Source: Candidatus Saccharimonadales bacterium
GTDB lineage: Bacteria; Patescibacteriota; Saccharimonadia; Saccharimonadales; UBA4665
Assembly: GCA_038236865.1 (NCBI GenBank)
Contig: JBBRZI010000001.1
Location: forward strand, 9,238-73,237
DNA length: 64,000 bases
Direction: 5' to 3'
Shown: piece after piece, positions 11,669-28,972 of the stretch
Layout of the letters: every line of letters starts with the position of its first letter
How positions within the stretch are numbered: position 1 is the first letter of the stretch
Program-made: the position numbers and the translations under genes
Notes under the pieces: model-generated
What the model was told of the DNA's origin: nothing
Seen by the model: the letters and a program-made list of their open reading frames with translations, nothing else
Databases searched by the model: none

Positions 11669-11745
11669 GATAGCGTGCCTACTTAAAGCGACAAAGTGCC
11701 CCATTACTTATTCATTTGCACCCCAAAATAAGCTATACTTCGCTT

Positions 11746-12978
11746 ATGCTTGGGCTATTCCGCCGATATAAACATGCACCTGAATATGTATTGGCGGTTA
11801 ACGCCGGCTCTTCGAGCATTAAAGCGGTGGTCTACGAGGTCGGCGCGCAACTGGAGGTTGTTTGCCAGAGCACGATTGAGAATATCGGTCAGGCGGGCGC
11901 GCTATTCGACACCCAAACTGGTTCTAACCACGACGGCACTTCCCTACCGGTTGATATCAGGACGCACACGGCGGCAATTGTCATGATCATGGGCTGGATC
12001 GATCAACAGATTAACACTGCTAATTTGCTGGCAATTGGACACCGTATCGTCCATGGCGGCCCGCAATATTACCAGCCACAGGTCATCACCGATCACCTGC
12101 TCGGGGACTTGCAGGCGTTTAGTAGCTATGACCCCGACCACTTGCCAGCTTCAATTCAACTGATCAAAAAGCTAACTAGCCTGTTTCCGAACTTACCGCA
12201 AGTGGCTTGTTTTGATACAGCGTTTTCGCATAATCTGCCCAGGGTTGCCCAGATTTTGCCGATTCCCCGCAAATATGAGCGGGAGGGCCTACGCCGTTAT
12301 GGTTTTCATGGCTTATCCTATACGTATTTATTATCGAAGCTACGCGAATTGGATGCCGAAGCCGCCAATGGCCGAGTTATCTTTGCCCATTTAGGCAGTG
12401 GCGCCAGCCTCACGGCGATTCAGAATGGCCAACCACTGGACGTTACGATGGGGTTGACGCCCGCTTCCGGTATACCGATGAGCACGCGCTCCGGTGACCT
12501 CGACCCGGGCATCGCCTGGTACTTACACCACAAAGCTGGCGTCAGTACCATTCAGTTCAACAATATGGTCAATCACCAGTCCGGTTTGTTGGGTGTTTCC
12601 GAGACTTCTGCCGACATGAAAACGCTTTTGCAAAACGAAAGTAGCGACGAACGCGCCGCTGAAGCCGTGGATCTATTCTGCTATCAAGCTAAAAAAGCGA
12701 TCGGCTCGATGGCAGCAGTGTTGGGCGGCGTCGAGACGCTGGTGTTTTCGGGTGGTATTGGCGAAAAGGCGCCGCTGATACGCGCCCGCATCTGTGCCGG
12801 TTTGGAGTTTCTGGGCCTTGAACTTGATGAGGCCAGGAATAACAGCAATGAAGCAGAGATTTCGGTGCATGATAGCCGGGTACGCGTCCGGGTGATTCAC
12901 ACGGACGAGGAAAGCGTTATTGCTCAGCAGATAGTTGGAGTCATTACTAATAGTTCACTAAATAAAAGAGGTTCATAA
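11746..12978 (+). CDS. ackA: Acetate kinase
   Basis: Contains [30 protein letters not shown]-like [10 protein letters not shown] and FHGLSY. ATG at 11746 is preferred over TTG at 11716. The stop overlaps the xfp start (TAATG). Confidence 0.9.
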
Positions 12979-15347: not shown

Positions 15348-15383
15348 GTCACCAGCCTGACGTCGAGCCACGAAGTTTAAGTC

Positions 15384-15404
15384 AACGGCGAACGGCGAAC
15401 GGCG
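15384..15404. repeat. 3 x 7-bp tandem repeat (AACGGCG)
   Basis: aacggcgaacggcgaacggcg, read directly. It lies in the convergent intergenic region. Confidence 0.8.
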
Positions 15405-15533
15405 AGTTTTCAGATCAGCGTAACTGACAATCTTGGCATCCTGGTCTTCGTCGCTGATATTATGTGGGTCCTGAGCTAACAGCTTACAACTATCTAACCG
15501 CCCGAATCGTCCACACTAAGCAACCGCAGTCAC

Positions 15534-16091
15534 TTAGTCGTCGCGCTCACTGTTCGGTGAAGTTACTGGCGGCAGGGTTTGCTGCGTGACTGGCGGAGTG
15601 CCAGCAACGACGTTGAAGTCGATGTATGGCAAACCGTTATAGTTGTCGATGACGGCGACCAGTCGATAGGTGCCCGGAGAATCAAACAGTTTTGGCCATG
15701 ATGCAAAACTGCCAGTCACGCTACTGTTGGCGGGTGTCTCTATTTGGCGCTGCTCGTTCTGGCAACGCTGGGCATCGGTAGTATCAGTCACGCGCTGCCA
15801 CTTGTGGTTCACAAACTTATAGACATCCAGCGGTTCAGTCGGGCACTCATTGGTGGCGTAGATGGAAGTATTGAGATTGTTCTGGACGGTAAAAACGACC
15901 GGTTCGCCGACAATATATTGGGACTGAGAAACGCTGACGTTAATCGTGCCAACGGGTAGCGTGTGGGTTCGGAATTGATCACCAACCCAGTAAAGCAGCC
16001 CGACCATTAGTCCAAACAGGACTAGGTAGCCCATCGCCCATATCGCCCGGCGGCGCCAACGGTGTCGCCAGTAATGGAGTTCGCTATTCAT
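15534..16091 (-). CDS. Cassette A gene 4: N-terminally anchored extracellular beta-rich (Ig-like) two-Cys protein
   Basis: Start set at the ATG at 16091, which forms an ATGA overlap with the upstream stop. It has one TM (AIWAMGYLVLFGLMVGLLYWV). It is a paralog of the N-terminal half of 27062..28003 (YIVGEPVVFTV / YLVGEPVSLTI; GTYRLVAV / GSYRIALH; LPYIDFNV / LPYVDFEV). Confidence 0.6.
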   Translation of the reverse strand: MNSELHYWRHRWRRRAIWAMGYLVLFGLMVGLLYWVGDQFRTHTLPVGTINVSVSQSQYIVGEPVVFTVQNNLNTSIYATNECPTEPLDVYKFVNHKWQRVTDTTDAQRCQNEQRQIETPANSSVTGSFASWPKLFDSPGTYRLVAVIDNYNGLPYIDFNVVAGTPPVTQQTLPPVTSPNSERDD

Positions 16092-16831
16092 ATCGTTTTG
16101 GCTCTCCATAGTCGATAGACGCCAGCCCCGGCAATGCCGATCGCTACGAGCATCCAGAGCAGGCGGAATGGACCGTCGGCTAAGTCGGTGCCCAAGTAAA
16201 GCGCGTGGACAAAGACGAACAGCATGATGATGTAGGACAGCAGGTGGATGAGTTTCCAAAGATAAGGCTTTTTCTCGACCCACAGCAGCGACGTGATGAT
16301 GACGATTGTGACGAGGTAAAAAGCCAGGACTCCGAGCGCCACGTAAAACGAACCGAGCTGTACGTTCCCGATGACCAAGGGTTTATAAGGTGATAGCCAG
16401 GGCACTAAAAGCTGCCAAATCGTAAACGGCACAAAATGATCAAACAGTAAGCTTACTAAATGGGCAACGACCGCCAGCCCGAAGGCGATACCGAGCGCCC
16501 GGTGCGTCGCCCAAGCCGTGATGGGGTCAAGGAATCTAAAGCTGTAGCCAGTCACCTGGCCAATGCCCGATAAGAGCAGTATAACGAGCGCGGCGGCGGC
16601 AACCAGACCCGAACCGCGGGCGACGTACCACGGCCACGAAGTCTTGGCCCGCTCCGTTAAGCGCTGGGCGACACTGGTGCCGGCGAGTGGTTGGGCTGTC
16701 GCCGCCTTTGAACTGCCCGACTCAGCCGCGGCTGAACCGACGCTGGCGACTGTGGCTAGGCTCGCGAAGATGGCGACCGCGCAGAGGCCATACACCGCCG
16801 CTTTAATTAGTTGTTTGAATGCCATTGCCAT
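16088..16831 (-). CDS. Cassette A gene 3: ferric-reductase/NOX-type (FRD, MsrQ-like) 6-TM heme-binding subunit
   Basis: Has HRALGIAFGLAVVAH (H-x13-H) and HLLSYIIMLFVFVH (H-x12-H). The N-terminus looks like a signal peptide or anchor. Confidence 0.75.
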   Translation of the reverse strand: MAMAFKQLIKAAVYGLCAVAIFASLATVASVGSAAAESGSSKAATAQPLAGTSVAQRLTERAKTSWPWYVARGSGLVAAAALVILLLSGIGQVTGYSFRFLDPITAWATHRALGIAFGLAVVAHLVSLLFDHFVPFTIWQLLVPWLSPYKPLVIGNVQLGSFYVALGVLAFYLVTIVIITSLLWVEKKPYLWKLIHLLSYIIMLFVFVHALYLGTDLADGPFRLLWMLVAIGIAGAGVYRLWRAKTI

Positions 16832-17747
16832 ACACTTTCGTTAGTATCTTACCATGCATCTCATACTGTAGTAGGAGCGCTAAGGCCCCTAACGGCTGAA
16901 TTGAGTTCCAGGCGGTCTTCAGGCCGAGCACGATCGAAACTTTTGCCAACACATCGGCTGTCATGGCAGTGGTACCATACACCGTCGCCAAACGGACGTT
17001 GCTGACGGCTGGGAGATTGGTACGGGGGTCAATGATATGATGCCAGTCAACGCCGTTATGTTGGCCGCGATGGTTCAGCACACTTGAGCTGGCCAGTCCA
17101 AAGCTTGATCCACCGGCAGCAAGTGAGTACGGACTATCGTGTTCGAGGTTAGCCGCGTCCTGGATAGCGACGTGCCACGGCTGGGACAGTTCGTTATAGC
17201 CGGCCGCCACGATGTCGCCGCCGAGCGATAGCCAATAGCCGCCGAGCGTAGCGGGTAGCGTCTGAGCCAGCTTGTCGGCCAAGTAGCCCTTACCAATGCC
17301 GCCCATATCTAAAGCCGTGCCATAGGGTATCTCTGCCCAGTCGTCGCCAATCGTCAAATTGTCTGCTGCTACCACCGTCTTTGCGCTGTGATCATCGAGC
17401 GGGTCATGTTCGTAACCAGGCACGTGCGAATGGCGGTAGCCGGCTGCTTGGAGGGCCGGTAGTATAAACGGGTTATATAGATTACCGGTTTGCAGGCTTA
17501 ACGTGCGCGCCGCCACCAGTAAATCATGAAACTCCGCTGTTACGGGCGTCCGAATGCCGGCTGCATTGTTGAATTTGGATAGTTCGCTGGCCGGTAGAAA
17601 ACGGCTAAACTGACGTTCGAAATTGAACGTCAGTTGCCAGAGTTTTTGAAAGATTTCAGTTGTGGTAGGGCTGGTTGCATCGCTGACGAGCACAAATGTT
17701 GTTTGGCTGCCGAGCGCTATAGCCGTTTGGCTGGAGCTTTTTAACAT
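16803..17747 (-). CDS. apbE: Cassette A gene 2: FAD:protein FMN transferase (ApbE family)
   Basis: Contains FERQFSRFLPASELSKFN, GTALDMGGIGKGYLADK and HHIIDPRT motifs. No N-terminal hydrophobic signal or lipobox. Confidence 0.85.
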   Translation of the reverse strand: MLKSSSQTAIALGSQTTFVLVSDATSPTTTEIFQKLWQLTFNFERQFSRFLPASELSKFNNAAGIRTPVTAEFHDLLVAARTLSLQTGNLYNPFILPALQAAGYRHSHVPGYEHDPLDDHSAKTVVAADNLTIGDDWAEIPYGTALDMGGIGKGYLADKLAQTLPATLGGYWLSLGGDIVAAGYNELSQPWHVAIQDAANLEHDSPYSLAAGGSSFGLASSSVLNHRGQHNGVDWHHIIDPRTNLPAVSNVRLATVYGTTAMTADVLAKVSIVLGLKTAWNSIQPLGALALLLQYEMHGKILTKVYGNGIQTTN

Positions 17748-18772
17748 GGTGCGGAACCGCAGGTCCGAGGTGTCGGCGTGGTAACTGGTGTGATAGGCGT
17801 GGCCGGCGCCGTCGCTGGCGCGGCAGACGTATTGGGCGGTAAACCATTAACCAGGCTATCGAGGTTAGCTTGACGGGTGCTATTTACCTGAGCGGCGGCG
17901 GCAGCTTGCGCTGAATTGGCTTTTAGAATCGGTGGTAGGGTTTTGAACAAGTCGCTGAGCATGATGATAAAGCTGCCTAGAACCACCCCAACTGCCGCCA
18001 AGGCGTACATGTTAAACGGCCAATCGCGTAGTTCGCCAGTTTGGCGGTTAGGCCCCTGGCTAAAGGCTTCCGTGACGATTTGTTGTTTGTCGACGCCACG
18101 ATGTGCCAGCAGTGCCCTCATCCCTTTCATAAACCCGGCCGGGCCACAAATAAAAAAGGTGTGTTCCGTAAAAGCCCCCTCAGTTACAGACTGCAATAGT
18201 TCCGGACTGATTCGGCCCGTGAACACCCTTGCCTGGTTTAAGCGGTTAATCGGGCCACTGCTGACCGTGAAGATCACTTGAAAGTTGGGATTAGCTTGCT
18301 CGAGTTTGAGTAGTTCAACAGCAAAGGGCATATCGAGTTGGTTCGGGCAACTATAGACCAGGGTAATGCGTGTCTCTGACCGGGTATACGCGGCGTGCCT
18401 GATCATGCTCATAAAGGGGGTAATACCGATTCCGCCAGCCAGCAGTACAATTTGCGGTTGGTGGGTAGGTTCAATCACGAAGCCACCGAAAGGCCCGCGT
18501 ACCGATACGCCGTCGCCTGGCTTAAGCCCAACGATGGCCCGCGTGAAACGGCCGCCGATGTGCATACTAAACTGCAGCGTACCGGTTTCCTCGGGTGCAG
18601 TCACAATCGAAAAGCAGCGGGCCGGCGTTGGGCGGTATTTTCGCCTAAAGCTGAGTGCAGCGTACTGGCCGGCCTCGTGCTGAAAACTGTCTGAGGGGGT
18701 CTTGGCTTGCAGCGTGAGCAACTGTGTCGTTGGCGTCAGTTTCTCGTTGGTCAGAACAGTATAGCGGCGCAT
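17741..18772 (-). CDS. Cassette A gene 1: FNR-type FAD/NAD(P)H oxidoreductase with C-terminal TM helix and Pro/Thr-rich tail
   Basis: Contains RCFS (RxYS), GPFGGF, LLAGGIGITPFMSM and FFICGPAGFM. These are followed by a TM helix (YALAAVGVVLGSFIIMLSDLF) and the tail ...PATAPATPITPVTTPTPRTCGSAPC. Confidence 0.8.
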   Translation of the reverse strand: MRRYTVLTNEKLTPTTQLLTLQAKTPSDSFQHEAGQYAALSFRRKYRPTPARCFSIVTAPEETGTLQFSMHIGGRFTRAIVGLKPGDGVSVRGPFGGFVIEPTHQPQIVLLAGGIGITPFMSMIRHAAYTRSETRITLVYSCPNQLDMPFAVELLKLEQANPNFQVIFTVSSGPINRLNQARVFTGRISPELLQSVTEGAFTEHTFFICGPAGFMKGMRALLAHRGVDKQQIVTEAFSQGPNRQTGELRDWPFNMYALAAVGVVLGSFIIMLSDLFKTLPPILKANSAQAAAAAQVNSTRQANLDSLVNGLPPNTSAAPATAPATPITPVTTPTPRTCGSAPC

Positions 18773-18906
18773 ATTCTAGGAGTATAGCACTTTTAATCTG
18801 ATGGTAAGCTGATTGGTATCACAGAGCAGTTGGTGCGGCTGCTGGCTCTGGCCTGGCCCACCCTAGCCGGGTTACTACCACCCAGCCGCGCTAGATTCGC
18901 CCTGAA

Positions 18907-19545
18907 TTATACTTTTTTTGCAAAGCAGTAGATCCAGTTAAGACGGCGTTTACTGTGGCCCCAGCGCTCGATCTCGTTCACGACGTAGATTGAAGTGATG
19001 GATAGTCCGCTCGCTGCAACTAGAGCGGCCGTAGATTCAATCGTTTGGTAATTAAAATACCAAACATTATCACCGCCCAATTCGGCCACGAACTGCTCTT
19101 CGCCCGAACCTTGTTTGAGTGATATGAACATACCGCCACCAGGTATCAAGACCCGCTGGAACTCGGCTAAGGCGGTCGCTATATCTGCGTCGTTCAGATG
19201 GAGCAGCGTTGCGTGACACCAGATACCGGCTATACTTTCGTCGCCAAATTTTAGTGTGCGGATATCCATGTTTTCAAAAGTTAACTCAGGGTGAAGCTGG
19301 TTGGCCCGACTGAGCAACTTTTCTGACAAATCTATGCCGACGACCTTTTGGCTGTGCTCAGCAAACTTTGCGGTATCACGACCGAAGGCACAACCAGCGT
19401 CTAACACGGGCAGATCCCCGCCCGGTAACATGGCGAGTAGGTTCGCCAGCTCTTCGCCCGGTGACACGTCGGCCGTGGCCAGTTCGTACTCGGCTGAGCT
19501 TGCATCGTATGCGGCGATTGTTTGGGTTAGATACTCACTAGCCAT
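18907..19545 (-). CDS. Class I SAM-dependent methyltransferase
   Basis: 212 aa with the VLDAGCAFGRD motif I. Confidence 0.8.
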   Translation of the reverse strand: MASEYLTQTIAAYDASSAEYELATADVSPGEELANLLAMLPGGDLPVLDAGCAFGRDTAKFAEHSQKVVGIDLSEKLLSRANQLHPELTFENMDIRTLKFGDESIAGIWCHATLLHLNDADIATALAEFQRVLIPGGGMFISLKQGSGEEQFVAELGGDNVWYFNYQTIESTAALVAASGLSITSIYVVNEIERWGHSKRRLNWIYCFAKKV

Positions 19546-19684
19546 GACTCTATCATAAACCTTTCCAACCAGGAAAGAAGGTTTCTAAGAAGTCTTCCCC
19601 GCAACAACGGGCGCTCTCCCAAGTGAACGGGCGCTGCTCACTGTCTGATACGTATTGTCAGCTACACTTTGAAAACGTAGGCAA

Positions 19685-20161
19685 TTAGCCGTTCAACGGC
19701 TTAAAGAGCGCGTCTACCAAGTGCTCGGCTTGTTTGTAAAAGCCCGGCCGCTGTTCTTTTTCGAGTTTGATGGTGGCGTGCAGTTTATGCATGGCTGGGT
19801 GGACTTCAAGCGTCGCGAGCAACTGTTTAAACTCGGTGTCGATGGCAGACAGCTCCCCATCCGTTAAGGATTCGAGACCAATAAAAGTATCACGAGCTTT
19901 TTTGTCGGCCGATATCAATTCGTTGAGCTTGAGCTGGATGGCTTTACTTTCACGATACTGGGTGTTCTGGATAGAAAACACCATGATAAAGATAATAACA
20001 TCGGTAATAACCGTGATGGTTATGAGCCAAGTGTTAGAAAAGTGATAATAGGGTCCCGTAAGGAGCCAGGCCAGCACGCCGGCAATCGACAGCATGAACG
20101 CATTGGTCGAGCTCGCTAAACGTGACACGGCAATAGAGAATTGTTGTAATGGTTTTTTCAT
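19685..20161 (-). CDS. Low-affinity iron permease (Fet4-like) family membrane protein
   Basis: 158 aa with two TM helices. NTWLITITVITDVIIFIMVFSIQNTQYRESKAIQLKLNELI resembles the bacterial low-affinity Fe permease family, recognised by eye. Confidence 0.55.
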   Translation of the reverse strand: MKKPLQQFSIAVSRLASSTNAFMLSIAGVLAWLLTGPYYHFSNTWLITITVITDVIIFIMVFSIQNTQYRESKAIQLKLNELISADKKARDTFIGLESLTDGELSAIDTEFKQLLATLEVHPAMHKLHATIKLEKEQRPGFYKQAEHLVDALFKPLNG

Positions 20162-20233
20162 ATTTACTTAGATACCTCAGCACCTAGTATAAGTCATATT
20201 GCTAGCGGTTGCTACGATGCTGGCCGATTATGG

Positions 20234-20761
20234 CTAGCGCAGCACCCAGCTTTTATCCGGTTGCACGGATAAAACTGCAAAATCTACCGACAGCACGTGC
20301 CCAAAGTAAGTTTGGTCGGCGTCTTCGGGTACTGGCAGACTGGCGGCATAGACTACCTCCAAAGGTTTGCCATCTGGCTGGGCTAGTTGGAGCGTTGCCC
20401 GTCTAAGATCTATTGCCGTCAGTATGCCCTGAGCTACGATTGATTTGTCTTGTGGATTTGTCAGCTGAAGCTCGAGGCTGGCGGCGACTAAGTTTTCAGC
20501 TGAGCTGGCTCGCCAGCTCAGCTTATTCTCCTGAATGGCTATTTCTGTAGTCAGATCCTGGTAGACTTCAAAGGCGTACACCGCACTTTTAGTGCTGCGG
20601 TCGGGTAGCTCGAGACGGTGTATATGCTCGGCTAAATCATCAACTTGCGCCTGCTTGCTGGCGGCGTGGCGCAGTATTTCACCGGCGATGCTGCCGAGCC
20701 AGGCTTGCTCGCGCGTTGAGGTGGCAAGTTTGCGTTCACTGTTGGATGTACATTTACTCAT
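20234..20761 (-). CDS. Hypothetical protein
   Basis: 175-aa ORF with no recognisable motif. Confidence 0.45.
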   Translation of the reverse strand: MSKCTSNSERKLATSTREQAWLGSIAGEILRHAASKQAQVDDLAEHIHRLELPDRSTKSAVYAFEVYQDLTTEIAIQENKLSWRASSAENLVAASLELQLTNPQDKSIVAQGILTAIDLRRATLQLAQPDGKPLEVVYAASLPVPEDADQTYFGHVLSVDFAVLSVQPDKSWVLR

Positions 20762-20915
20762 GAGTCAGTATTATACAACTATTCGCAAAAAAAGAAAGGT
20801 TTAGGCATTTTAATTCAATAGCGGCTGTGGCTACTGACGATAGTGCGCAGGCCAGAAGGCGCGCAAGCTAAGCTAGAGATTTTTTAGAGGGCTGCACACA
20901 GGGCTGGTGCAACAG

Positions 20916-21302
20916 CTATTTCTTCTTTTTGGCGGCTTGCTTGGCTTGATTTAGCGCTATGGCAGCCCGAATCAGAGCCTTTAACGATGCCTCGTGGATT
21001 GTATCGCCGGCCTGGAATTCGACGGCTCGCCGTTGGTTGCCCTTAAGTTCGGCGTTGAAAGTATTGTCCGGGTCTGGCAGACTAGCACCGTACAAAAAGC
21101 TTACGCTGACCTTGGTCTTAAAAGCGTTCCCAACTGCGAGCAGTCCCCCATCATAATACCAACAGGGCGATCCCATATACTTCCAGTCTTCTACTACCTC
21201 CGAGTCAGCCTCGTGAAACAGTTGGCGCAGCCGGGCTAGCGTTGGCCCGCGCCAGTCGGTGAGACCCGCTATGAAACGATCAATCTGCTCGGTTGGGGTC
21301 AT
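20916..21302 (-). CDS. DUF1801 (YdhG-like) domain protein
   Basis: 128 aa with the DWKYMGSPCWYYDGGLLAVGNAFKTKVSVSFLYGASLPDP pattern. Confidence 0.65.
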   Translation of the reverse strand: MTPTEQIDRFIAGLTDWRGPTLARLRQLFHEADSEVVEDWKYMGSPCWYYDGGLLAVGNAFKTKVSVSFLYGASLPDPDNTFNAELKGNQRRAVEFQAGDTIHEASLKALIRAAIALNQAKQAAKKKK

Positions 21303-21468
21303 AAAGTCACGTCTCCATACTCATCCAAATAGTATAGCAGCTAGACTTTAGCAGTTTCTACACATAATCAAATCTTGGATGTGTCTTGGAGGCGTGGTTT
21401 TGGCAGGCTACTACGGACTGTCGTAAAAAATACTTGCATCTGTGCGTCAAATACTACATACTAATTTC

Positions 21469-22467
21469 ATGGAAAACGCCACCGGACCTTTACCCTCCGA
21501 AGAATCGAGGCCTCAGCTCCAACCTACAGAGGCTAGAGCGTCACTATTTGATGCAGCAGCAGAAAACCAGGTTCTCAACCTAGAGCCAATGCTGCTTAGC
21601 CAACGGCCGACTGAAGCTGCAGCGACAGCACCGGACATCATTCCGCGTTACCGAATTGCGAGTGCGTACATCCAGGTAGCATTAGTCAAAGATAATTTTA
21701 CTAAAAAGGATGTTGTTGACTATCTACTTGAACGAGGCGTGAGCCGGCAGGATGCCAATGAAGGCCTACGGGCGCATGTGTATCTTGGCAATTATGCCCT
21801 ACGGGCTGCCCAAGCCGGGGATGCCGCCAGCCGAATTATTATGCCGCAACCTACCAAACGGCCCAAGTTCGACAGACAGGCAGTCACGCTACCGCCGCAA
21901 CGAGTCGTCACCCCAGCCGAGCGCCAGGCGGCTATTGCTGCGCAGCCAGCGATCGATGATCGCCACTGGTTTCCCGGCACCGTCATGGTTGGTTCGCAGG
22001 TGCCGCCCGAATTGCTGACGAACATGCAACGGGGCTTTATTGCCATGCTCGAGCCCAGTAGCCTGGCGTCTGCCCTCGTGCCGCTCGAGGATACCGCGTA
22101 CAGTGGCATCGTCTACCCCCATATCCGACATCAGCCGGGCCAACGCAACCTGCGCCACGATCTGAATATTCTAGCCGATGATACGGTGCGAGTCTGCGGC
22201 ATGAAAGACGTGGTGCTGGACGACGAAGAAACGCTGATCGTTAATATCCTGTTAACATTTGGCAAGTTCGGTCTTATGACCAGTGCTCTAAGCGAAGCGG
22301 GTATCAGCCAGCCTTGGCACGCCATGAAGGCGTTACGGCACAAAATGAATCGTAACGCGCACGGTGTTATCAACAAATATCTCCTCGGCACAGTCCCGGT
22401 AAATGTCTTAGGGCCCGCTCCAGCCCAGGTTCGGATAAAAGATATGCGCTCGCCGCTATCGGCTTAA
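21469..22467 (+). CDS. Hypothetical protein (possible C-terminal HTH)
   Basis: ORF starts at GTG 21442 or ATG 21469. The C-terminal ETLIVNILLTFGKFGLMTSALSEAGISQPWHAMKALRHKMN loosely resembles a LuxR-type HTH. Confidence 0.45.
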   Translation: MENATGPLPSEESRPQLQPTEARASLFDAAAENQVLNLEPMLLSQRPTEAAATAPDIIPRYRIASAYIQVALVKDNFTKKDVVDYLLERGVSRQDANEGLRAHVYLGNYALRAAQAGDAASRIIMPQPTKRPKFDRQAVTLPPQRVVTPAERQAAIAAQPAIDDRHWFPGTVMVGSQVPPELLTNMQRGFIAMLEPSSLASALVPLEDTAYSGIVYPHIRHQPGQRNLRHDLNILADDTVRVCGMKDVVLDDEETLIVNILLTFGKFGLMTSALSEAGISQPWHAMKALRHKMNRNAHGVINKYLLGTVPVNVLGPAPAQVRIKDMRSPLSA

Positions 22468-22614
22468 CCCTATTGGCCAGGCTTGTAGCAACTCTGGCTC
22501 AAACAATTGCATAGACACACCAAGAGGTATGTTATGGCTGGAGCTTGTGGATGTACTGCGCAACTTTAATTCAATAATAGTTGGGAAAAGTGGATGTGTT
22601 TCGGGATGAATATA

Positions 22615-22965
22615 TTAAGTCTGAACAATGGGAAATTTGCCTGTTTGCAACAGGCTATATGAATCAACCTGCACAACGGCGTCAATATTCAGCGGTCCAT
22701 ACAAATGAGGGAACGTATCATCGGGGTAAGTAGCTCGTTCATCCTTAACTTTAGCTTCTAGCTTTGCTGGATCGATAGTTAGCAATCGCAGGTCCAGTGT
22801 TTCACGATAGATTAAATCAGCAACAGTATTCACCTGATAGGCATACGCTAAGTGAATAAAGCCGTCTTTGTCAAAACTACGAGTCAGCGAGCTTACTTGG
22901 TACAATCCGGCTGCTTGTGCCTGTGCCCAATCCGTTGCTTTAGCAATATGGTAAAGATACTTCAT
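22615..22965 (-). CDS. DUF952 domain protein
   Basis: 116 aa with MKYLYHIAKATDW...GFIHLAYAYQV...FPHLYGPLNIDAV. Confidence 0.7.
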   Translation of the reverse strand: MKYLYHIAKATDWAQAQAAGLYQVSSLTRSFDKDGFIHLAYAYQVNTVADLIYRETLDLRLLTIDPAKLEAKVKDERATYPDDTFPHLYGPLNIDAVVQVDSYSLLQTGKFPIVQT

Positions 22966-23052
22966 GCACTCACTATAACAAAAAGACCTCTCGAGAGAAT
23001 GTCCTATGTGTAAGTCTTTGGCTAAGCCTAAAGGCTTATGCCGGGTTTCAGC

Positions 23053-23997
23053 TTAAAATGTAATCACAATTTTGCCAGGTGTATGGCCGGTTTGGCTCAG
23101 CTGGTGTGCTTGGCGTAAGCCCTTTTCTGAGAAAGGTAACGTTTCGGCGATCGTGACCGTCACCTTTCCGGTCCGAATCAGCTCAAATAACGCGGCGAGC
23201 TGTTCACCGTTGGGGCTCATCATGACGGGTTGCAACTGAATGTTATGGGTAGCTGCGTAACTTTGGGTATCGGGGTCGATTGATCCAAGCACGAGCATTG
23301 TGCGGGGGCCGTGCTCGCCAAAAACCTTTAGACTTTTACGTTGTGTTTCGCCGCCGACCGCGTCAATCACCAGATCAATGTCAGTGACTTGGGTCGAAAA
23401 ATCGTCATGTTCGTAATCGATGACTTCGTCGGCTCCTAGCTTGGTTAGGTAGTCGGCATTAGGCTTGCGGGCGGTGGTAATAACGTAAGCCCCAGCCAAT
23501 TTCGCAAATTGGATGGCAAACGAGCCAACACCACCAGTACCGGCATGAATTAATATCCGCTGACCCTGCTGTATGTCGGCAAAGTCATGCAGTGCTTGCC
23601 ATGCAGTTAAGCCGGCGAGCGGCGTGGCGGCGGCTTCTTTAAAGCTCATCTCTTCGGGGATGCGAGCGATATCGCTTTCGGCAACCTCAACGTACTCGGC
23701 GTACGTTCCCTGGGGTGTCGCAGCCCGTCGGCCGGCAACCCTATCACCCACCTTCCAGGCGGTAACTCCCTTGCCAATCTCTACCACGGTGCCGGCAAGA
23801 TCAAACCCGAGTACAATCGGAAAATCCCAACGTATCACGCTCTGTAAATAACCTTCTCGAATCTTCCAATCGATCGGGTTAATCGACGTGGCGGCCAGCT
23901 TGACGATCAGGTTATGTTCGGTCGGAGTTGGTGTGGGTGTTTCGATAGCCTGTAGGGTATCGGCTCCACCGTATGAGTTGATTGCAATTGCTTTCAA
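23053..23997 (-). CDS. NAD(P)H-dependent medium-chain (quinone oxidoreductase-like) dehydrogenase
   Basis: 314 aa with the MDR pattern PIDWKIREGY...GDRVAG...ILIHAGTGGVGSFAIQFAKLAGA. Confidence 0.85.
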   Translation of the reverse strand: MKAIAINSYGGADTLQAIETPTPTPTEHNLIVKLAATSINPIDWKIREGYLQSVIRWDFPIVLGFDLAGTVVEIGKGVTAWKVGDRVAGRRAATPQGTYAEYVEVAESDIARIPEEMSFKEAAATPLAGLTAWQALHDFADIQQGQRILIHAGTGGVGSFAIQFAKLAGAYVITTARKPNADYLTKLGADEVIDYEHDDFSTQVTDIDLVIDAVGGETQRKSLKVFGEHGPRTMLVLGSIDPDTQSYAATHNIQLQPVMMSPNGEQLAALFELIRTGKVTVTIAETLPFSEKGLRQAHQLSQTGHTPGKIVITF

Positions 23998-24026
23998 GTT
24001 TTATCCTTTGTCGTTTTACTTTACTT

Positions 24027-24042
24027 TGTATAGTATATCACA
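24027..24042. promoter_or_regulatory. CRP-like box (TGTAT-N6-TCACA) upstream of cassette B
   Basis: tgtatagtatatcaca matches 9 of 10 half-site positions. It lies 126 nt upstream of the ATG at 24168. Confidence 0.3.
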
Positions 24043-24167
24043 TGCCATTGCCTATCGAAATGACCACACTTAACAGGGGTACAATTGCTGGAACGGACGT
24101 CCGATCAGTACTATTCTTGGACTAATGCTCATGTTATACTGACTAGACTTTTAGTATAAGGTGGCAC

Positions 24168-25403
24168 ATGGGTAACTATAAGGTAATAGCAAGTCAAGCG
24201 ATTACCCCTTCTACACAACTTCTGACATTGCAATACGTTCAGGGTGAACGTATGGTGTTCCGGCCGGGCCAGTACGCAGCCATTAATGGCTACAAGGGGC
24301 ACCGGGCGATGCCGATTCGCTGTTTTTCATTTGTTACCTCGCCGACTGATGCGGAATTGCTCCAATTCGCGATGCGCGTCAAAGGTCACTTTACGAAAGC
24401 TGTGGCCAATTTGCCCGTCGGCGAACAGGTACATGTGCAGGGCCCCTACGGTGGCTTCGTCATGAATGGTCACGAGGAAGCCAAAGTTGTCTTTTTGGCC
24501 GGCGGAATCGGCATTACGCCGTTCATGAGTATGATCCGATTTGCCACGATTACCCATGCTGCGACTGATATGCGACTGGTCTACGCTGCCCAATCCCAGG
24601 ATGACATTCCGTTTCTAAATGAACTGAAATGGCACAGAGGAAAGAACCTTAACTTCACCCCAACATTCGTCGTCTCCAAAGGGCCACGAAACAGCTTAGA
24701 GGGCTATCAGTCGACCGAGGGCCGGATTACGAGCGAAGTACTGGAATCGATTGTTGGCGTGACATATGCCGATACAGCCACGACTTTTTATATCTGTGGT
24801 CCGCCGCCGTTTATGAATGGCATGCTACAGCTACTGCTGAGCAAAGGCATCAGCCGATCGCGTATTAATACCGAGGCCTTCAGCCAGGGCAAGAACCGCC
24901 AGACCGGTTTGGTGCGGGATTGGCCATTCAGTATGTATGGCCTGTCCGCGCTCGCTACCGCTGCGGCGCTGCTGGCGATTACGACGGGTGATTTTATCCG
25001 GACAGTACCCAGATTGACGACGACCAAACATTCACTTTCCCTCGGCGACAATGGTACGGTCAATCAGCGCCAATCCGACATTGATGCGCTCATCAACTCC
25101 TTACCGGCGAGCAGTACTAGTGGTCAGTCTTCACCAGCCGTCCAGTCCGCCGTGGCCGCGGCGACGCCGCCGGCCCCGGCCGTCAACCCGTCAACCAGCG
25201 TGGCCATACTGCCCTTTAATCATCTGACCACTCCAGTCGCGAAGGCGCCAGCTTCCGGAACGGCAACATCAACGTCGACCCCAACGTCGACCTCAACGTC
25301 GACCCCGGCACCGACCCCCACTCCCACTCCAGCACCGACCCCAAAGCCAACCCCTGCTCCGGTATGTACGACCAGTCAAAGTGGGGTAACGACGTGCAAA
25401 TAG
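24168..25403 (+). CDS. Cassette B gene 1: FNR-type FAD/NAD(P)H oxidoreductase with C-terminal TM helix and long Pro/Thr/Ser-rich tail
   Basis: Contains RCFS, GPYGGF, FLAGGIGITPFMSM and FYICGPPPFM. These are followed by a TM helix (YGLSALATAAALLAITTGDF) and a tail ending ...PTPAPVCTTSQSGVTTCK. Confidence 0.8.
   Translation: MGNYKVIASQAITPSTQLLTLQYVQGERMVFRPGQYAAINGYKGHRAMPIRCFSFVTSPTDAELLQFAMRVKGHFTKAVANLPVGEQVHVQGPYGGFVMNGHEEAKVVFLAGGIGITPFMSMIRFATITHAATDMRLVYAAQSQDDIPFLNELKWHRGKNLNFTPTFVVSKGPRNSLEGYQSTEGRITSEVLESIVGVTYADTATTFYICGPPPFMNGMLQLLLSKGISRSRINTEAFSQGKNRQTGLVRDWPFSMYGLSALATAAALLAITTGDFIRTVPRLTTTKHSLSLGDNGTVNQRQSDIDALINSLPASSTSGQSSPAVQSAVAAATPPAPAVNPSTSVAILPFNHLTTPVAKAPASGTATSTSTPTSTSTSTPAPTPTPTPAPTPKPTPAPVCTTSQSGVTTCK
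25270..25305. repeat. 3 x 12-bp in-frame tandem repeat (CAACGTCGACCY) inside the B1 tail
   Basis: caacgtcgaccc / caacgtcgacct / caacgtcgaccc, read directly. It encodes part of TSTSTPTSTSTSTP. Confidence 0.85.
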
Positions 25404-26353
25404 TTCTCCGGCACGATACCAAGCAGGCGCTTGGAGGCGACGTGACAGTTGTGCTGGCCGTCGATGCTCGACGCATTGTCGAACCGGTATTTCGGCGTAT
25501 TTGGGAACAAGTCTTTGGATTTGAACGGCAATTTAGTCGATTTTTACCGGACAGTGAGCTGTCGCAGTTCAATCGTGGCGCCGGAGTGCGCCAGGATATT
25601 TCGGAAGCATTTGCTACATTGTTGACCGCATCCCAAGCGATGAGCCAGGCTACCGACGGCCTGCATAACCCGTTCATCTTGCCAGCGGTCCAGCGGGCGG
25701 GCTATCTCGATTCGGCGGTCGCCGGCTATCGTGCTGACAAGTCAGATGATTTTCGTGATCGGGCCGTCGTTTCGGCTGATCATTTGCAGCTCGAAACCAA
25801 CCGACAGGCCACCATCCCCTATGGTACCGCCCTTGACCTGGGCGGTTGCGGCAAGGGCTACCTGGCCGATGCCATTGCCGATGAACTTGATCGAGCTGAC
25901 CTGGTGGGGTATTGGGTGTCGCTCAGTGGTGATATGGTCACCTGTGGCTTTGACGAACAGGGCCAACCGTGGGAAACAGGTATTGTTTCGGCCCGCACGC
26001 CACAAGCCGAATCACCAGCATATGTGGCTGGGAACGGTGAGCGATTGCATATCGCAACCTCCGGCACGTTCCTTCGGCCTGGGCAGGCCAAACTGCGGGG
26101 GCATCACCTGATCGATCCCCGAACCGGCCAAGCGGCGCAAACCGATATTAAGCTGGCGACCGTTATCGCGCCTTCGGCTATTTTGGCCGATGTATTGGCC
26201 TCAGCGGCGACTATCATTGGCAACCAGCAAGCGATACCGTATCTGAAGTCTCGGGGTGCGCTCGGAGCGGTTATACAGACGGCCCGACGTGATTATACAT
26301 ACGGTACGCACGTCCAGACGCGTGCATCAAGGCAGGTAGCGCATGTCAGCTAG
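25364..26353 (+). CDS. apbE: Cassette B gene 2: FAD:protein FMN transferase (ApbE family)
   Basis: Contains FERQFSRFLPDSELSQFN, GTALDLGGCGKGYLADA and HHLIDPRT. Start is ATG 25364 or GTG 25394. No signal peptide or lipobox. Confidence 0.85.
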   Translation: MYDQSKWGNDVQIVLRHDTKQALGGDVTVVLAVDARRIVEPVFRRIWEQVFGFERQFSRFLPDSELSQFNRGAGVRQDISEAFATLLTASQAMSQATDGLHNPFILPAVQRAGYLDSAVAGYRADKSDDFRDRAVVSADHLQLETNRQATIPYGTALDLGGCGKGYLADAIADELDRADLVGYWVSLSGDMVTCGFDEQGQPWETGIVSARTPQAESPAYVAGNGERLHIATSGTFLRPGQAKLRGHHLIDPRTGQAAQTDIKLATVIAPSAILADVLASAATIIGNQQAIPYLKSRGALGAVIQTARRDYTYGTHVQTRASRQVAHVS

Positions 26354-27065
26354 AGTAGTCTCGCTGGTGTTAGCCCTCGTTGTGGCCGTTGGTGTCGGTA
26401 GTGTTTTGTTGACACCCGGTCACGTATTCGCAGCTGAGAACTCCGGCAATGTAACGGTCCAGGTCGTACCTGGCGAAAAGCTCAGCAGTCGTTTGCAAGG
26501 GCAGCTCAAAGTGTCATGGCCCTGGTACGTGACCAGAGCATCGGGTATCGTGGCGGCCGCGACTCTGATGATCCTGCTCTTGTCGGGAATCGGTCAGATT
26601 ACGGGGCGGACTTTCCGCCTACTCGATCCGTTAACAGCTTGGGCGTCGCACCGCGCTCTGGGCATCGTCTTTTCAGGAGCGGTGTTTATTCATATTTCCA
26701 GCCTATTATTCGATCATTTTATTACCTTTAATGTCTGGCAACTACTGGTGCCTTGGCTGTCCGGCTACCGCTCAACTCACTGGCTGGGTTTGAACGTCGG
26801 TTCTATATATGTTGCGATGGGTATCATCGCTATGTATATGACGGCCGCAATTGTCATCACTTCGCTCGTCTGGGTAGAGAAAAAGCCGGCGTTGTGGAAG
26901 CTGGTGCACTACTTATCCTATGTAACGATATTTTTGGTGTTCGTGCACGCTTTATACATTGGGACTGATATGGCGCACGGCTTTTGGCGCTGGTTATGGG
27001 TTGGACTGAATGCTCTGATATTCTTGGCGGTGGTGGCGCGGCTATGGCGAGTGAGAACCATATGA
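26343..27065 (+). CDS. Cassette B gene 3: ferric-reductase/NOX-type 6-TM heme-binding subunit
   Basis: Has HRALGIVFSGAVFIH (H-x13-H) and HYLSYVTIFLVFVH (H-x12-H). It overlaps the end of ApbE by 11 nt. Confidence 0.75.
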   Translation: MSARVVSLVLALVVAVGVGSVLLTPGHVFAAENSGNVTVQVVPGEKLSSRLQGQLKVSWPWYVTRASGIVAAATLMILLLSGIGQITGRTFRLLDPLTAWASHRALGIVFSGAVFIHISSLLFDHFITFNVWQLLVPWLSGYRSTHWLGLNVGSIYVAMGIIAMYMTAAIVITSLVWVEKKPALWKLVHYLSYVTIFLVFVHALYIGTDMAHGFWRWLWVGLNALIFLAVVARLWRVRTI

Positions 27066-28003
27066 GAGTCAGTGAACTTATCCATGTCGAAGATCCTTGG
27101 CACAGCCGACTGCGCTGGCTGGCGGTGTTCGTCGTATTGTTCGTGGGCATCGTGTTCGCTTCGTTCGTGGCCCTCGATCGTATTCGGACCTACTCGCTGC
27201 CCACGGGCGGTATCCAGCTCAGCACGCGGTATACGCAGTACTTAGTCGGAGAACCGGTCAGCCTCACAATCAAAAACGGTTTTAATAGCCCGATATCGAT
27301 CATTACCAGCTGTCCATCCGGACCATTCGCGGTCTATCGATCGGTAAATAATAAATGGGTACGTATTCATGACACGATTTCGGCGACAAATTGCTCCGCT
27401 CTGCCGGGAACGTTGCAGCTACCGGCCGCCGGATCGTCAACGCTGTCGTTAAGCGATTGGTCGCAGCTGTTTGCGACTGCCGGCAGTTACCGGATCGCGT
27501 TACACGTCCAGTATACCAATGCCTTACCGTATGTTGATTTTGAGGTCATGACGCCACCAGCGCCTTACGTCGCTAAAGCGCCTGTACCAACCCCTGTTCA
27601 GTCGCCGCAGATAGCAAGTACTCCCAGGAGCGGCACTACGACGCAGTCAACTCCGCTACCGACCAGCCCAAGCTCGACACCGACACCGGCATCGACCCCG
27701 ACACCCTCCACGTCAAGACCGCCGCAGACAATCACGCTGTACGTCAATTCGGCTGGTAATTATTTGACCACAAACATCAGCATGTACGTTGGGGACACGC
27801 TTAAGATTATGTACCAAGCACCGTACGGTGATGAAGTAATTACCAGTTTTAGCCCGATCGCCGGTACGACCACGACCATCGGCTCGATGAAAGTGGATTC
27901 GGAATTCAGGAGTACCAGCCGCGTCTTATCGTCAGCCGGGCATTGGACCTTCAAGGCCGTTGACCATAATGGGAATAGCGGTAGCCTGGTAGTATTACCC
28001 TAG
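27062..28003 (+). CDS. Cassette B gene 4: anchored extracellular Ig-like two-Cys protein with Pro/Thr linker and extra C-terminal beta domain
   Basis: Start set at the ATG at 27062 (ATGA overlap with the upstream stop, the same geometry as cassette A). It has one TM, a paralogous beta domain, a PT-rich linker and a roughly 90-aa C-terminal domain. Confidence 0.6.
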   Translation: MRVSELIHVEDPWHSRLRWLAVFVVLFVGIVFASFVALDRIRTYSLPTGGIQLSTRYTQYLVGEPVSLTIKNGFNSPISIITSCPSGPFAVYRSVNNKWVRIHDTISATNCSALPGTLQLPAAGSSTLSLSDWSQLFATAGSYRIALHVQYTNALPYVDFEVMTPPAPYVAKAPVPTPVQSPQIASTPRSGTTTQSTPLPTSPSSTPTPASTPTPSTSRPPQTITLYVNSAGNYLTTNISMYVGDTLKIMYQAPYGDEVITSFSPIAGTTTTIGSMKVDSEFRSTSRVLSSAGHWTFKAVDHNGNSGSLVVLP

Positions 28004-28018
28004 CCAGCGTTTTGTGAG

Positions 28019-28972
28019 CTAAGTCACCTGTTTTTGTAGGGCGTGACGGTAGAGCTCATCAATCCAATTTGAATGCAGGGCTCGAGCGTCGTTGGCCCAG
28101 GACAATGCTGGCGTTTCGGAATCAGGAGCGTAGTAGCCGACGGGAGCAGTCTGACCGGTCGCTTTATCGCGTTGATATTCTTTGTCGAGATCTGGCCGGT
28201 TGTATTCGGGGTGGCCCTGGATGTACAGGTAAGCGCCGCCGGTACCGTTCGGACTGCTAGCCAGTAGCCAGCCTGCCCGATCGCTGACGGCCAGTAATTC
28301 GAGTGCGGCACCGCCCATTGCCTTAACTGGTATGTCGCCCCAGCGTGAGTGAGGTGATTTTAGGGAGTCGTCTAGCCCGGCAAGTATAGGATTGTTACTG
28401 GATCTATCGACGGTGTGTTCAAATACGCCAAATATTTTGCTTTCTCCAAGCTGGCGTTCAAGCCCGAATAGATGATTGAGAACGAAATGGCCCGCCAAAC
28501 AGGAGTAAATAGTGGAGCGCACATTACCCCTTGCCCAATCGATGACTGCCGCTAATTGGGCGGCATATTTGATGTCGTCCAGTGGCAGAAGCTCTGGCGT
28601 AGTGTTGCTGGCTGCTCCTCGAAGTTCCAAGTTGTCACCGGTCACAATGAACCCGTCGAGTCCTTGTTCGGCCACCTCCGAAAAAGCGGTATAACGGCCA
28701 AGCACCGCACTGCGGCTGGCGCCGTCAGTTTCTCTATAATCATCATCGAATTTAACGAGTACCGGTTCGATTTGCAAAACTGTTCGGCTCATATAGCGAA
28801 GCCACTGAACTTCGGTTGTTTCCATGGCAGCAGCCGGCATAAGATTTAAAATACCAATCCGAGCCGGGCGAATATCTTGGTGGCTGGCTGCTTCTTCGGT
28901 TAGAACAGCAGCGCCACTTTCTTGCAGCCGGTGGTAGAGGTAGCTATCCCCTTCAGGAACGATTATTGGCAT
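28019..28972 (-). CDS. metA: Homoserine O-acyltransferase (MetA family)
   Basis: ORF 28019..29248 trimmed to the ATG at 28972. Contains IRPARIGILNLMP...ETTEVQWLR and later HPEY motifs typical of MetA. Confidence 0.85.
   Translation of the reverse strand: MPIIVPEGDSYLYHRLQESGAAVLTEEAASHQDIRPARIGILNLMPAAAMETTEVQWLRYMSRTVLQIEPVLVKFDDDYRETDGASRSAVLGRYTAFSEVAEQGLDGFIVTGDNLELRGAASNTTPELLPLDDIKYAAQLAAVIDWARGNVRSTIYSCLAGHFVLNHLFGLERQLGESKIFGVFEHTVDRSSNNPILAGLDDSLKSPHSRWGDIPVKAMGGAALELLAVSDRAGWLLASSPNGTGGAYLYIQGHPEYNRPDLDKEYQRDKATGQTAPVGYYAPDSETPALSWANDARALHSNWIDELYRHALQKQVT

Follow-up and report, generated by a model that had tools for sequence, protein, structure and literature searches.

The window analyzed here is a 64,000-nucleotide stretch of a Candidatus Saccharimonadales genome (contig JBBRZI010000001.1, assembly GCA_038236865.1; positions are those of the window unless a locus is named). 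Between positions 15534 and 28003, it contains two four-gene cassettes arranged back to back, cassette A on the minus strand and cassette B on the plus strand, with seven other genes between them. The cassettes encode putative transmembrane electron-transfer components, and one of the genes between them encodes a protein of an iron-permease family. This raises the question of whether the 12.5-kb block works as one unit, as in the original prediction of a reductive iron-uptake island, or whether each cassette has a function of its own. Our analysis favors the latter. The block probably represents two anciently diverged paralogs of a module conserved in Saccharibacteria and a few other lineages of the candidate phyla radiation (CPR), which, judging from sequence, is likely to be a split electron exporter resembling ferric reductases and NADPH oxidases, and the genes between the cassettes are fluid passengers.

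Two paralogous four-gene cassettes

The gene order in both cassettes was FNR-like reductase, ApbE, a membrane protein with a ferric reductase domain (FRD), and a membrane-anchored immunoglobulin (Ig)-like protein. Cassette A, read leftward from 18772, encoded the FNR-like reductase at 17741–18772 (Pfam FAD_binding_6, NAD_binding_1, and NAD_binding_6), ApbE at 16803–17747 (Pfam ApbE, E = 1.2e-41), the FRD protein at 16088–16831 (Pfam Ferric_reduct, 26.9 bits), and a transmembrane anchor with an Ig-like β-sandwich at 15534 to approximately 16109 (weak Big_14 match and AlphaFold2 model). Cassette B, read rightward from 24168, encoded the reductase at 24168–25403 (FAD_binding_6 and NAD_binding_1), ApbE at 25364–26353 (E = 4e-45), the predicted di-heme FRD protein at 26343–27065 (Ferric_reduct, 31.5 bits), and the Ig-like protein, extended by approximately 100 C-terminal amino acids, at approximately 27044–28003. 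Open reading frames (ORFs), Pfam matches, and pairwise identities thus confirmed the mirror-image arrangement described in the original prediction, as well as the presence of a ferric-reductase-domain membrane protein in each cassette. The A and B proteins were 42% (FNR), 44% (ApbE), 57% (FRD), and 38% (fourth protein, over the Ig-like domain) identical, with E-values from 1e-86 to 3e-41, and the cassettes are therefore true paralogs. A repeat search of the block found no inverted repeat between the cassettes at the DNA level, the longest arms being 30 nt with 70% complementarity.

In both cassettes, each gene abuts or overlaps the next, an arrangement suggestive of translational coupling. The ORFs listed for the fourth genes begin too far upstream; their likely starts are at 16109 or 16091 in cassette A and at 27044 in cassette B, each of which overlaps the stop codon of the preceding gene.

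Distribution and age of the cassettes

A scan at one genome per species identified 80 loci with FRD homologs on 79 contigs, which were taken with 10-kb flanks, and all window proteins were mapped onto these loci by tblastn; an exact look-up of the window FRD protein returned a 3.1-kb duplicate contig only. The homologs were annotated almost exclusively from metagenome-assembled genomes of Candidatus Saccharibacteria or Saccharimonadales, with a few from Nomurabacteria, Paceibacterota, or Parcubacteria. Genes for FNR, ApbE, FRD, and the fourth protein appeared in identical order and orientation in 68 of the 80 loci. Nine of the remaining 12 were cut by contig ends, two had no detectable fourth gene, and one lacked ApbE. 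The cassette therefore represents a module conserved throughout the lineage, normally present as a single copy within 20 kb.

Back-to-back cassettes were found in only one other genome (contig JBDTSH010000016.1, hereafter the sister genome), whose cassette proteins were approximately 69–86% identical to those of the window. The sister genome contained one A-type copy (locus L002) and one B-type copy (locus L030), and its left flank was syntenic with that of the window, including phosphoketolase, acetate kinase, a cytochrome b-like gene, and further genes. Its A-type cassette (L002, 8903–10744) had no ApbE gene, only a 45-nt gap, between the FNR and FRD genes, and the B-type cassette retained ApbE; one ApbE may serve both modules. 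A neighbor-joining tree of concatenated FNR, ApbE, and FRD grouped window cassette B with L030, L071, L012, L028, and L032, and placed window cassette A with L003 and L005 in a separate clade. Thus, the cassettes are old paralogs, or one of them was laterally acquired, and they do not represent a recent inverted duplication. This organism and the sister genome inherited the back-to-back layout from their common ancestor, and the mirror arrangement is a lineage-specific accident of genome arrangement.

A different pairing was observed in locus L036, where a second, more divergent cassette (14044–20201; FRD 42% identical) was convergent to the first and accompanied by a distant ApbE/FNR-like pair. 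This locus looks like a hot spot of redox genes.

Promoters of the cassettes

An extended −10 box (TGCTATACT, 18789–18781, minus strand) was located 8 nt upstream of the cassette A start codon. Another (TGTTATACT, 24132–24140, plus strand) was located 27 nt upstream of the cassette B start codon and was followed by a Shine–Dalgarno-like AAGGTGG (24158–24164, plus strand). The former was kept in the sister genome as TGGTATACT, and the latter was identical there. We then counted such boxes by regular expression over the upstream regions of 72 cassettes. The extended −10 box (TGnTAWAMT) occurred within 40 nt of the FNR start in 34 cassettes, compared with 0.5% of random 40-nt windows, and a plain −10-like hexamer occurred in 54, compared with 4.8% of random windows. 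The distance from the extended box to the FNR start codon was 6–15 nt in 28 of the 72 cassettes, which suggests leaderless or short-leader transcripts throughout the family; TGCTATACT is likely the promoter of such a transcript of cassette A. A consensus promoter and terminator scan of 15300–28300 gave counts equal to the shuffled expectation, and it missed the extended −10 boxes because they have no −35 element.

The original prediction had pictured the two cassette promoters as facing a shared central segment. This geometry is correct, but four central genes, from the DUF1801 gene through the methyltransferase gene, lie upstream of cassette A on its own strand and read toward it, and the conserved −10 boxes of the two cassettes indicate that each is its own transcription unit.

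The FRD membrane subunit

Four His residues of the FRD subunit (H110, H124, H196, and H209) were invariant in 32 homologs. Their offsets of 14 and 13 residues were equal to those between His101/115 and His209/222 of NOX2, which are the ligands of its two hemes (PMC3591440). The inner heme ligands are missing from most "short" FRDs of bacteria, YedZ/MsrQ included, and the few short FRDs with four His residues cluster with long FRE/NOX-like forms (PMC3591440). The four invariant His residues therefore indicate that the subunit is not of the YedZ type, although several databases name its homologs "sulfoxide reductase heme-binding subunit YedZ". The signature of YedZ/MsrQ and STEAP proteins, in which the first canonical heme His is replaced by a conserved Arg (PMC3591440), was absent from the 32 homologs. 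NADPH oxidases (NOXs) that generate reactive oxygen species carry an equivalent of His-119 four residues after the second His of the third transmembrane helix (PMC3591440). This residue was also absent, the corresponding position 128 being an invariant Leu (L128), which weakly favors an acceptor other than O2.

The PF01794 score of the B copy was above the cut-off of 28 bits, and many homologs carried a precomputed PF01794 match. The AlphaFold2 model of the FRD subunit contained six long helices, with a predicted local distance difference test score (pLDDT) of 73. The top Foldseek matches of this model were to Streptococcus pneumoniae NOX (SpNOX; 8qt6 and 8qq7; probability 0.95, TM-score 0.37), with an E-value of 0.3 that is not significant, and lower matches to STEAP2 (TM-score 0.47) and STEAP1 (TM-score 0.43) likewise had non-significant E-values.

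The FNR-like subunit and its C-terminal tail

The reductase subunit belongs to the FNR-like family, as it contains FAD_binding_6 and NAD_binding_1 domains with RxYS-type, GGxGxxP, and CGP motifs, which were conserved as RxFS, GGIGITPF, and CGP in 72 orthologs. Its sequence matches in the PDB included NqrF, benzoate dioxygenase reductase, cytochrome b5 reductase, and the dehydrogenase domain of SpNOX. The reductase domain is followed by a conserved hydrophobic helix (WPxNxYALGAxGxxLGSxxVMxSDLLKxLPP), a short conserved segment (RQxxLDxLVN), and a linker of variable length rich in Pro, Thr, Ser, and Ala; the Pro/Thr-rich tail, predicted to be extracytoplasmic, comprises 60–150 residues.

In 50 of the 72 orthologs (from L002–L081), the C-terminal end was formed by a C-x(4-10)-C loop, which contained SG in 48 of the 50; the commonest forms were C-T-T-[ST]-x-S-G-V-T-T-C and C-Q-T-T-P-S-G-R-C. 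The other 22 tails ended in ..[RK]TTVS, ..PPP, or related sequences. The cassette B protein had a long Pro/Thr/Ser-rich tail with the canonical terminal loop CTTSQSGVTTCK (25200–25403), and the Pro/Thr-rich tail of the cassette A protein (17741–17900) ended in a degenerate loop, TCGSAPC. A frameshift check revealed no canonical loop hidden in the cassette A tail.

ApbE and candidate flavinylation sites

The two ApbE proteins matched the family profile (PF02424) over positions 15–256 and 15–264 of 266. DxGGxGKGYLAD, LSLGGD, and WHHIIDPRT, which we take to be typical motifs of the ApbE family, were conserved in 72 orthologs. In many loci, the FNR stop codon is directly followed by the opening of the ApbE reading frame, which precedes the ApbE start by only 1–10 codons; this leaves no room for a signal peptide, and the N-termini were hydrophilic. 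Extracytosolic flavinylation is recognized by a signal peptide or lipobox on ApbE or its substrate (PMC8238504), and no such feature was found on the ApbE proteins here.

Genomes with orphan apbE genes have been taken to imply undiscovered substrates (PMC8238504), and flavinylation sites can be located on unstructured C-terminal extensions (Huang et al., 2024). Among the four cassette proteins, a recurrent site of the form [ST]G[AVISGC][ST] was found only in the FNR tail, where 24 of 72 orthologs had SG[VI]T. The Cys loop partly resembles the ApbE target motif, and the SG[VI]T within it is the best candidate for a flavinylation substrate. A link between the loss of ApbE and the loss of the tail motif was considered and rejected: the sister A-type cassette without ApbE keeps the motif, and window cassette A shows the reverse.

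The Ig-like fourth protein

A search with the single sequence of the fourth protein gave four matches, and a profile built from the locus translations was used instead. The family is tiny, with 250 clusters at E ≤ 1e-3 among 1.84 billion representatives. The AlphaFold2 model (pLDDT 87) showed a helix at residues 4–39, corresponding to an N-terminal transmembrane anchor, followed by a β-sandwich. Foldseek matched the latter to generic Fn3, macroglobulin, and arrestin-like β-sandwiches, which gave no functional clue, and 49 of 64 members matched Big_14 (PF20251) weakly (E ≤ 1). Invariant residues were G48, N71, C83, P84, W98, C110, F136, G140, and R143.

The long forms of the fourth protein (B-type and some others, in L005–L076) carried one of two unrelated C-terminal domains of approximately 100 amino acids. 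The domain of cassette B (27650–28003) was common to the long forms of the B clade and had no significant Pfam match. The Joint Genome Institute label "plastocyanin" for one long form (P0150) was rejected, as neither a conserved set of Cys, His, and Met copper ligands nor a Pfam match was found.

A weaker tier of the search consisted of proteins of approximately 400–430 amino acids that matched with their N-terminal part. Approximately 30 proteins of 390–460 amino acids matched the anchor and Ig-like domain at their N-termini, and the two that were examined (P0184 and P0185) were CPR YidC/Oxa1 insertases. It is possible that the anchor and Ig-like domain serve more generally as a membrane-proximal module in Patescibacteria.

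Genes between the cassettes

Scans against Pfam, NCBIfam, and PHROG reproduced the content originally assigned to the central segment (18773–24167). From left to right, it encoded an S-adenosylmethionine-dependent methyltransferase (18907–19545, minus strand; Pfam Methyltransf_25 and Methyltransf_11), a 158-aa protein of the PF04120 Iron_permease family (19685–20161, minus strand; E = 2.1e-33, and phrog_3485 "membrane protein"), a 175-aa protein (20234–20761, minus strand) with no match in the three databases, a DUF1801 protein (20916–21302, minus strand; E = 2.7e-18), a 341-aa protein (21442–22467, plus strand) likewise matching none of them, a DUF952 protein (22615–22965, minus strand; E = 3.5e-24), and an MDR-family dehydrogenase resembling NAD(P)H quinone oxidoreductases (23053–23997, minus strand; Pfam ADH_N and ADH_zinc_N_2). 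The last scored 193 bits for the NCBIfam quinone_pig3 subfamily, under the cut-off of 297 bits.

These genes are not linked to the cassettes. The 341-aa protein, the DUF952 protein, and the quinone oxidoreductase had no homolog in the 80 loci by tblastn. Matches to the methyltransferase were weak and generic in two loci, the 175-aa protein matched in one locus, and DUF1801 occurred on two contigs. The center of the sister genome, approximately 11 kb in length, encoded an ABC ATPase, an FtsX/MacB permease, a 500-aa protein, a PF04120 protein, a thiolase, a His_Phos-like protein, a Lipoprotein_15 protein, and a DUF1801 protein. Only PF04120 and DUF1801 were common to both centers; the methyltransferase was missing from the sister center, and the sister homolog of the 175-aa protein was located downstream of cassette B, outside the center. 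Therefore, only two of the seven central genes accompany the mirror layout in the sister genome, and the expected synteny of the whole block in relatives was not borne out. Relatives thus carry whole cassettes (68 of the 80 loci) mostly without the central genes, which contradicts the idea of the 12.5-kb block as one functional island; cassettes without the central genes in relatives were the very observation that the original prediction had named as counting against it.

Genes for DUF1801 and PF04120 also adjoined each other in three of the nine metagenomic PF04120 loci considered below (L083, 3907–8006; L084, 577–1402; and L086, 4150–5036), as in the window (19685–21302). PF04120 may be linked to DUF1801 instead of the cassettes.

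Proposed mechanism and alternatives

In the mechanism that we consider probable, cytoplasmic NAD(P)H would reduce FAD on the FNR-like subunit, which its own C-terminal helix would anchor to the membrane. Electrons would then cross the membrane via two b-type hemes of the FRD subunit, bound by His110 and His196 on the inner side and by His124 and His209 on the outer side, and would reach an extracytoplasmic acceptor, for which ferric iron or another metal, O2, and a disulfide are candidates. The ApbE without signal peptide would supply covalent FMN to some component of the module, and the membrane-anchored Ig-like protein would serve outside the cytoplasm for docking or as an adaptor. Complex formation, the direction of electron flow, the flavinylation target, and the identity of the acceptor are thus what we infer from gene content and motifs. 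An extracellular electron-transfer role, the fallback of the original prediction, fits each cassette on its own but not the block as an island.

Several observations weigh against this mechanism or its evolutionary setting. The fold evidence for the FRD subunit is weak (Foldseek E = 0.3, pLDDT 73), a profile search with FRD against PDB sequences found nothing, and the cassette A copy scored just under the PF01794 cut-off. The tree that separates the two cassettes carries no support values. In the cassette, Pfam detected no FMN_bind, NqrB/RnfD, DUF2271, or DUF3570 substrate domain, and no conserved [ST]GA[ST]-like site was present in the FRD, Ig-like, or ApbE proteins. The candidate SG[VI]T site should lie outside the cell, while ApbE appears to be cytoplasmic. 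In addition, PF04120 is kept between the cassettes in both genomes with the mirror layout, and a lineage-specific link is conceivable.

The cassettes could instead be split bacterial NADPH oxidases that pass electrons to O2, forming superoxide or H2O2, whether to detoxify oxygen, to regenerate NAD+, or to attack the host. The exact NOX2 spacing of the four His residues, the SpNOX structures at the top of the Foldseek list, and the sequence resemblance of the FNR subunit to the SpNOX dehydrogenase domain all point this way, but these Foldseek E-values are not significant, the NOX2 His-119 equivalent is an invariant Leu, and neither ApbE nor an Ig-like subunit has a role in any known NOX; we regard this alternative as unlikely. 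A system of the MsrQ/YedZ type, in which FRD would pass electrons to a periplasmic MsrP-like repair reductase encoded elsewhere, would agree with the database names of the homologs and with the reduction of E. coli MsrQ by Fre, a separate FNR-family protein (cited in PMC8238504). The invariant His110 in place of the YedZ/STEAP Arg makes this very improbable, and in the tblastn mapping of window genes, which was not a screen of the flanks for MsrP specifically, no other gene recurred beside the cassette in the 80 loci. A thiol–disulfide relay resembling DsbD, with the Cys loop of the FNR tail and C83/C110 of the Ig-like protein as acceptors and a covalent flavin converting one-electron to two-electron transfer, is quite unlikely as well. 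In its favor, the loop ends 50 of the 72 tails, the Ig-like domain contains two invariant Cys residues, ApbE implies a covalent flavin, and flavinylation-associated systems of the DsbD type do exist (PMC8238504). However, 22 of the 72 tails lack the loop, the Cys residues of the Ig-like domain may form a merely structural disulfide, and no thioredoxin-fold gene was noticed in the cassette. An equally doubtful idea makes the Cys loop a new ApbE substrate, in which a flavin or a redox-active disulfide on a flexible tether would carry electrons from the outer heme over tens of nanometers. Electrons would be taken through the envelope, perhaps to the surface of the host cell on which Saccharibacteria live, and the tail flavin would be loaded by the cytoplasmic ApbE before export of the tail.

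The remaining alternatives concern the block as a whole. In a reductive iron-uptake island, the cassettes would reduce external Fe(III) and the PF04120 protein would import Fe(II), as FRE and FET4 do in fungi. The assignment of the ORF at 19685–20161 to the iron-permease family was confirmed by a score of 115.3 bits against a cut-off of 25 (profile positions 2–122 of 128). The gene lies 1–4 kb from FRD-type reductase genes in this genome, the missing His-119 signature is as expected of metal reductases, and some published MsrQ-like clusters carry the iron transporter VIT1 (PMC8238504). Against this, PF04120 was found within 10 kb of a cassette on only 2 of the 79 contigs, namely in the sister genome and in L031, where it was 5.4 kb upstream of the cassette, and was missing from the other 77. 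In the reverse direction, none of nine metagenomic PF04120 loci (56–79% identity) contained a cassette, a count that is weak alone because five of the nine were shorter than 6 kb. Furthermore, the cassettes have their own promoters, the remaining central genes are not conserved beside them, and the PF04120 protein, with 158 amino acids and two apparent hydrophobic segments in a by-eye reading of the sequence, does not have the full-length architecture of Fet4 and is not known to act as a transporter in bacteria. Just one paper was found to cite PF04120, and it appears to concern an unrelated topic, orfX-p47 toxin gene clusters. We therefore consider the pairing of FRE and FET4 functions at this locus improbable. 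The mirror-image geometry and the different contents of the two centers could also be taken as signs of a composite mobile element, with the inverted cassettes as arms and the central genes as cargo. This is effectively refuted by the absence of DNA-level inverted repeats, the absence of transposase and integrase domains from the block ORFs in Pfam scans, the divergence of the arms (38–57% protein identity, different clades), and the syntenic left flank in the sister genome; the G+C content of the block is unremarkable.

Neighboring genes

The block is flanked on the left by phosphoketolase and acetate kinase genes and on the right by genes for homoserine O-succinyltransferase and a VanY peptidase. 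The acetate kinase and phosphoketolase genes (11716–15347, plus strand) abut, with the stop codon of one overlapping the start codon of the other at 12978, and are consistent with a phosphoketolase fermentation route. The sister genome likewise has the pair beside the cassette, and L014 and L015 have only phosphoketolase there. A 465-aa cytochrome b-like membrane protein (Cytochrom_B_N_2/Cytochrome_B) was encoded 4 kb from cassette A (10037–11434, minus strand). Its homologs adjoined the cassette in L051 (71%) and L008 (61%) and were present within 10 kb in L071 and the sister genome, which makes this gene a more frequent neighbor of the cassette than PF04120.

Two further features of the window were noted. 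A 782-aa ORF (47398–49746, minus strand) fused an N-terminal thymidylate kinase with two ThyX (Thy1) stretches. The MprF-like lysyl-phosphatidylglycerol synthase was split into LPG_synthase_TM (4840–5826, plus strand) and LPG_synthase_C (50595–52295, plus strand), located 45 kb apart.

Relation to known systems and implications

The closest published counterparts are "MsrQ-like" flavinylation-associated gene clusters, which combine PF01794, apbE, and a gene for an FMN-binding protein, often with a fused NAD-binding domain (Meheust et al., 2021, eLife, PMC8238504). They occur mostly in Actinobacteria, and a subset carries VIT1 (PMC8238504). The window cassettes share with them the clustering of a putative di-heme protein of the PF01794 type with apbE and an NAD-binding (PF00175) module as cytosolic donor; electron export has been proposed for these systems, and iron reduction for assimilation has been proposed for a subset. 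In the present cassettes, by contrast, NAD/FAD binding resides in a polypeptide of its own, which has a transmembrane helix and extends into a long external tail; the cassettes contain no gene for an FMN_bind, DUF2271, or DUF3570 substrate, ApbE has no signal peptide, an additional Ig-like (Big_14-like) membrane protein is always present, and the organisms are Saccharibacteria/CPR. As far as sequence comparison indicates, the split architecture, the apparently cytoplasmic orphan ApbE, the obligatory Ig-like subunit, and the tethered tail with its Cys loop would be new relative to MsrQ-like systems.

SpNOX (PDB IDs: 8QQ7 and 8QT6), NOX2, and FRE1 resemble the module in the FRD, modeled here with six helices, with four heme-ligand His residues at NOX2-like spacing and in the FNR-type FAD/NAD(P)H dehydrogenase with RxYS-like, GGxGxxP, and CGP motifs. 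They differ in that a single polypeptide takes the place of the two genes found here, and the module has in addition ApbE, the Ig-like subunit, and the extracytoplasmic tether of its reductase; the NOX enzymes also carry the His-119 signature that is absent here. E. coli MsrQ (YedZ), which works with Fre and MsrP, likewise pairs an FRD protein with a separate FNR-family flavin reductase. However, the first heme His is replaced by Arg in YedZ, whereas all four His residues are retained in the module, whose reductase carries a membrane anchor and is a product of the same operon; an MsrP-like gene was not noticed beside the cassette in a mapping that did not screen the flanks for it specifically. 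The fungal FRE and Fet4 pair resembles the locus in the proximity of an FRD-type reductase gene to a PF04120 member, but the association here is not conserved in relatives. Fet4 has approximately 550 amino acids and multiple transmembrane helices, compared with which the 158-aa protein is fragment-sized.

In the literature library that was searched, no paper was found that links Saccharibacteria or Patescibacteria with ApbE or ferric reductases, and this Saccharibacteria-wide electron-export module has apparently been undescribed so far. The flavinylation survey kept only components with signal peptides, and CPR bacteria were strikingly under-represented in it (PMC8238504); an apparently cytoplasmic orphan ApbE would have been missed because of this filter.

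The biological interest of the locus comes from the module itself and not from its mirror layout or the permease, and with the failure of the iron-island claim, follow-up of the central genes becomes unnecessary. The general view of Saccharibacteria and other CPR bacteria is that they mostly ferment and that electron-transport machinery is scarce or absent in them, and the module bears on how they rebalance NAD(P)H. If the tethered-tail idea were true, it would add a hitherto unknown kind of extracellular electron transfer, and it would give an initial indication of how these epibionts with reduced genomes get rid of reducing equivalents. If the module is indeed an NAD(P)H-driven di-heme exporter, its presence in most sampled environmental Saccharibacteria genomes would make it a core redox device of the group, one that the present lineage keeps in two diverged copies.

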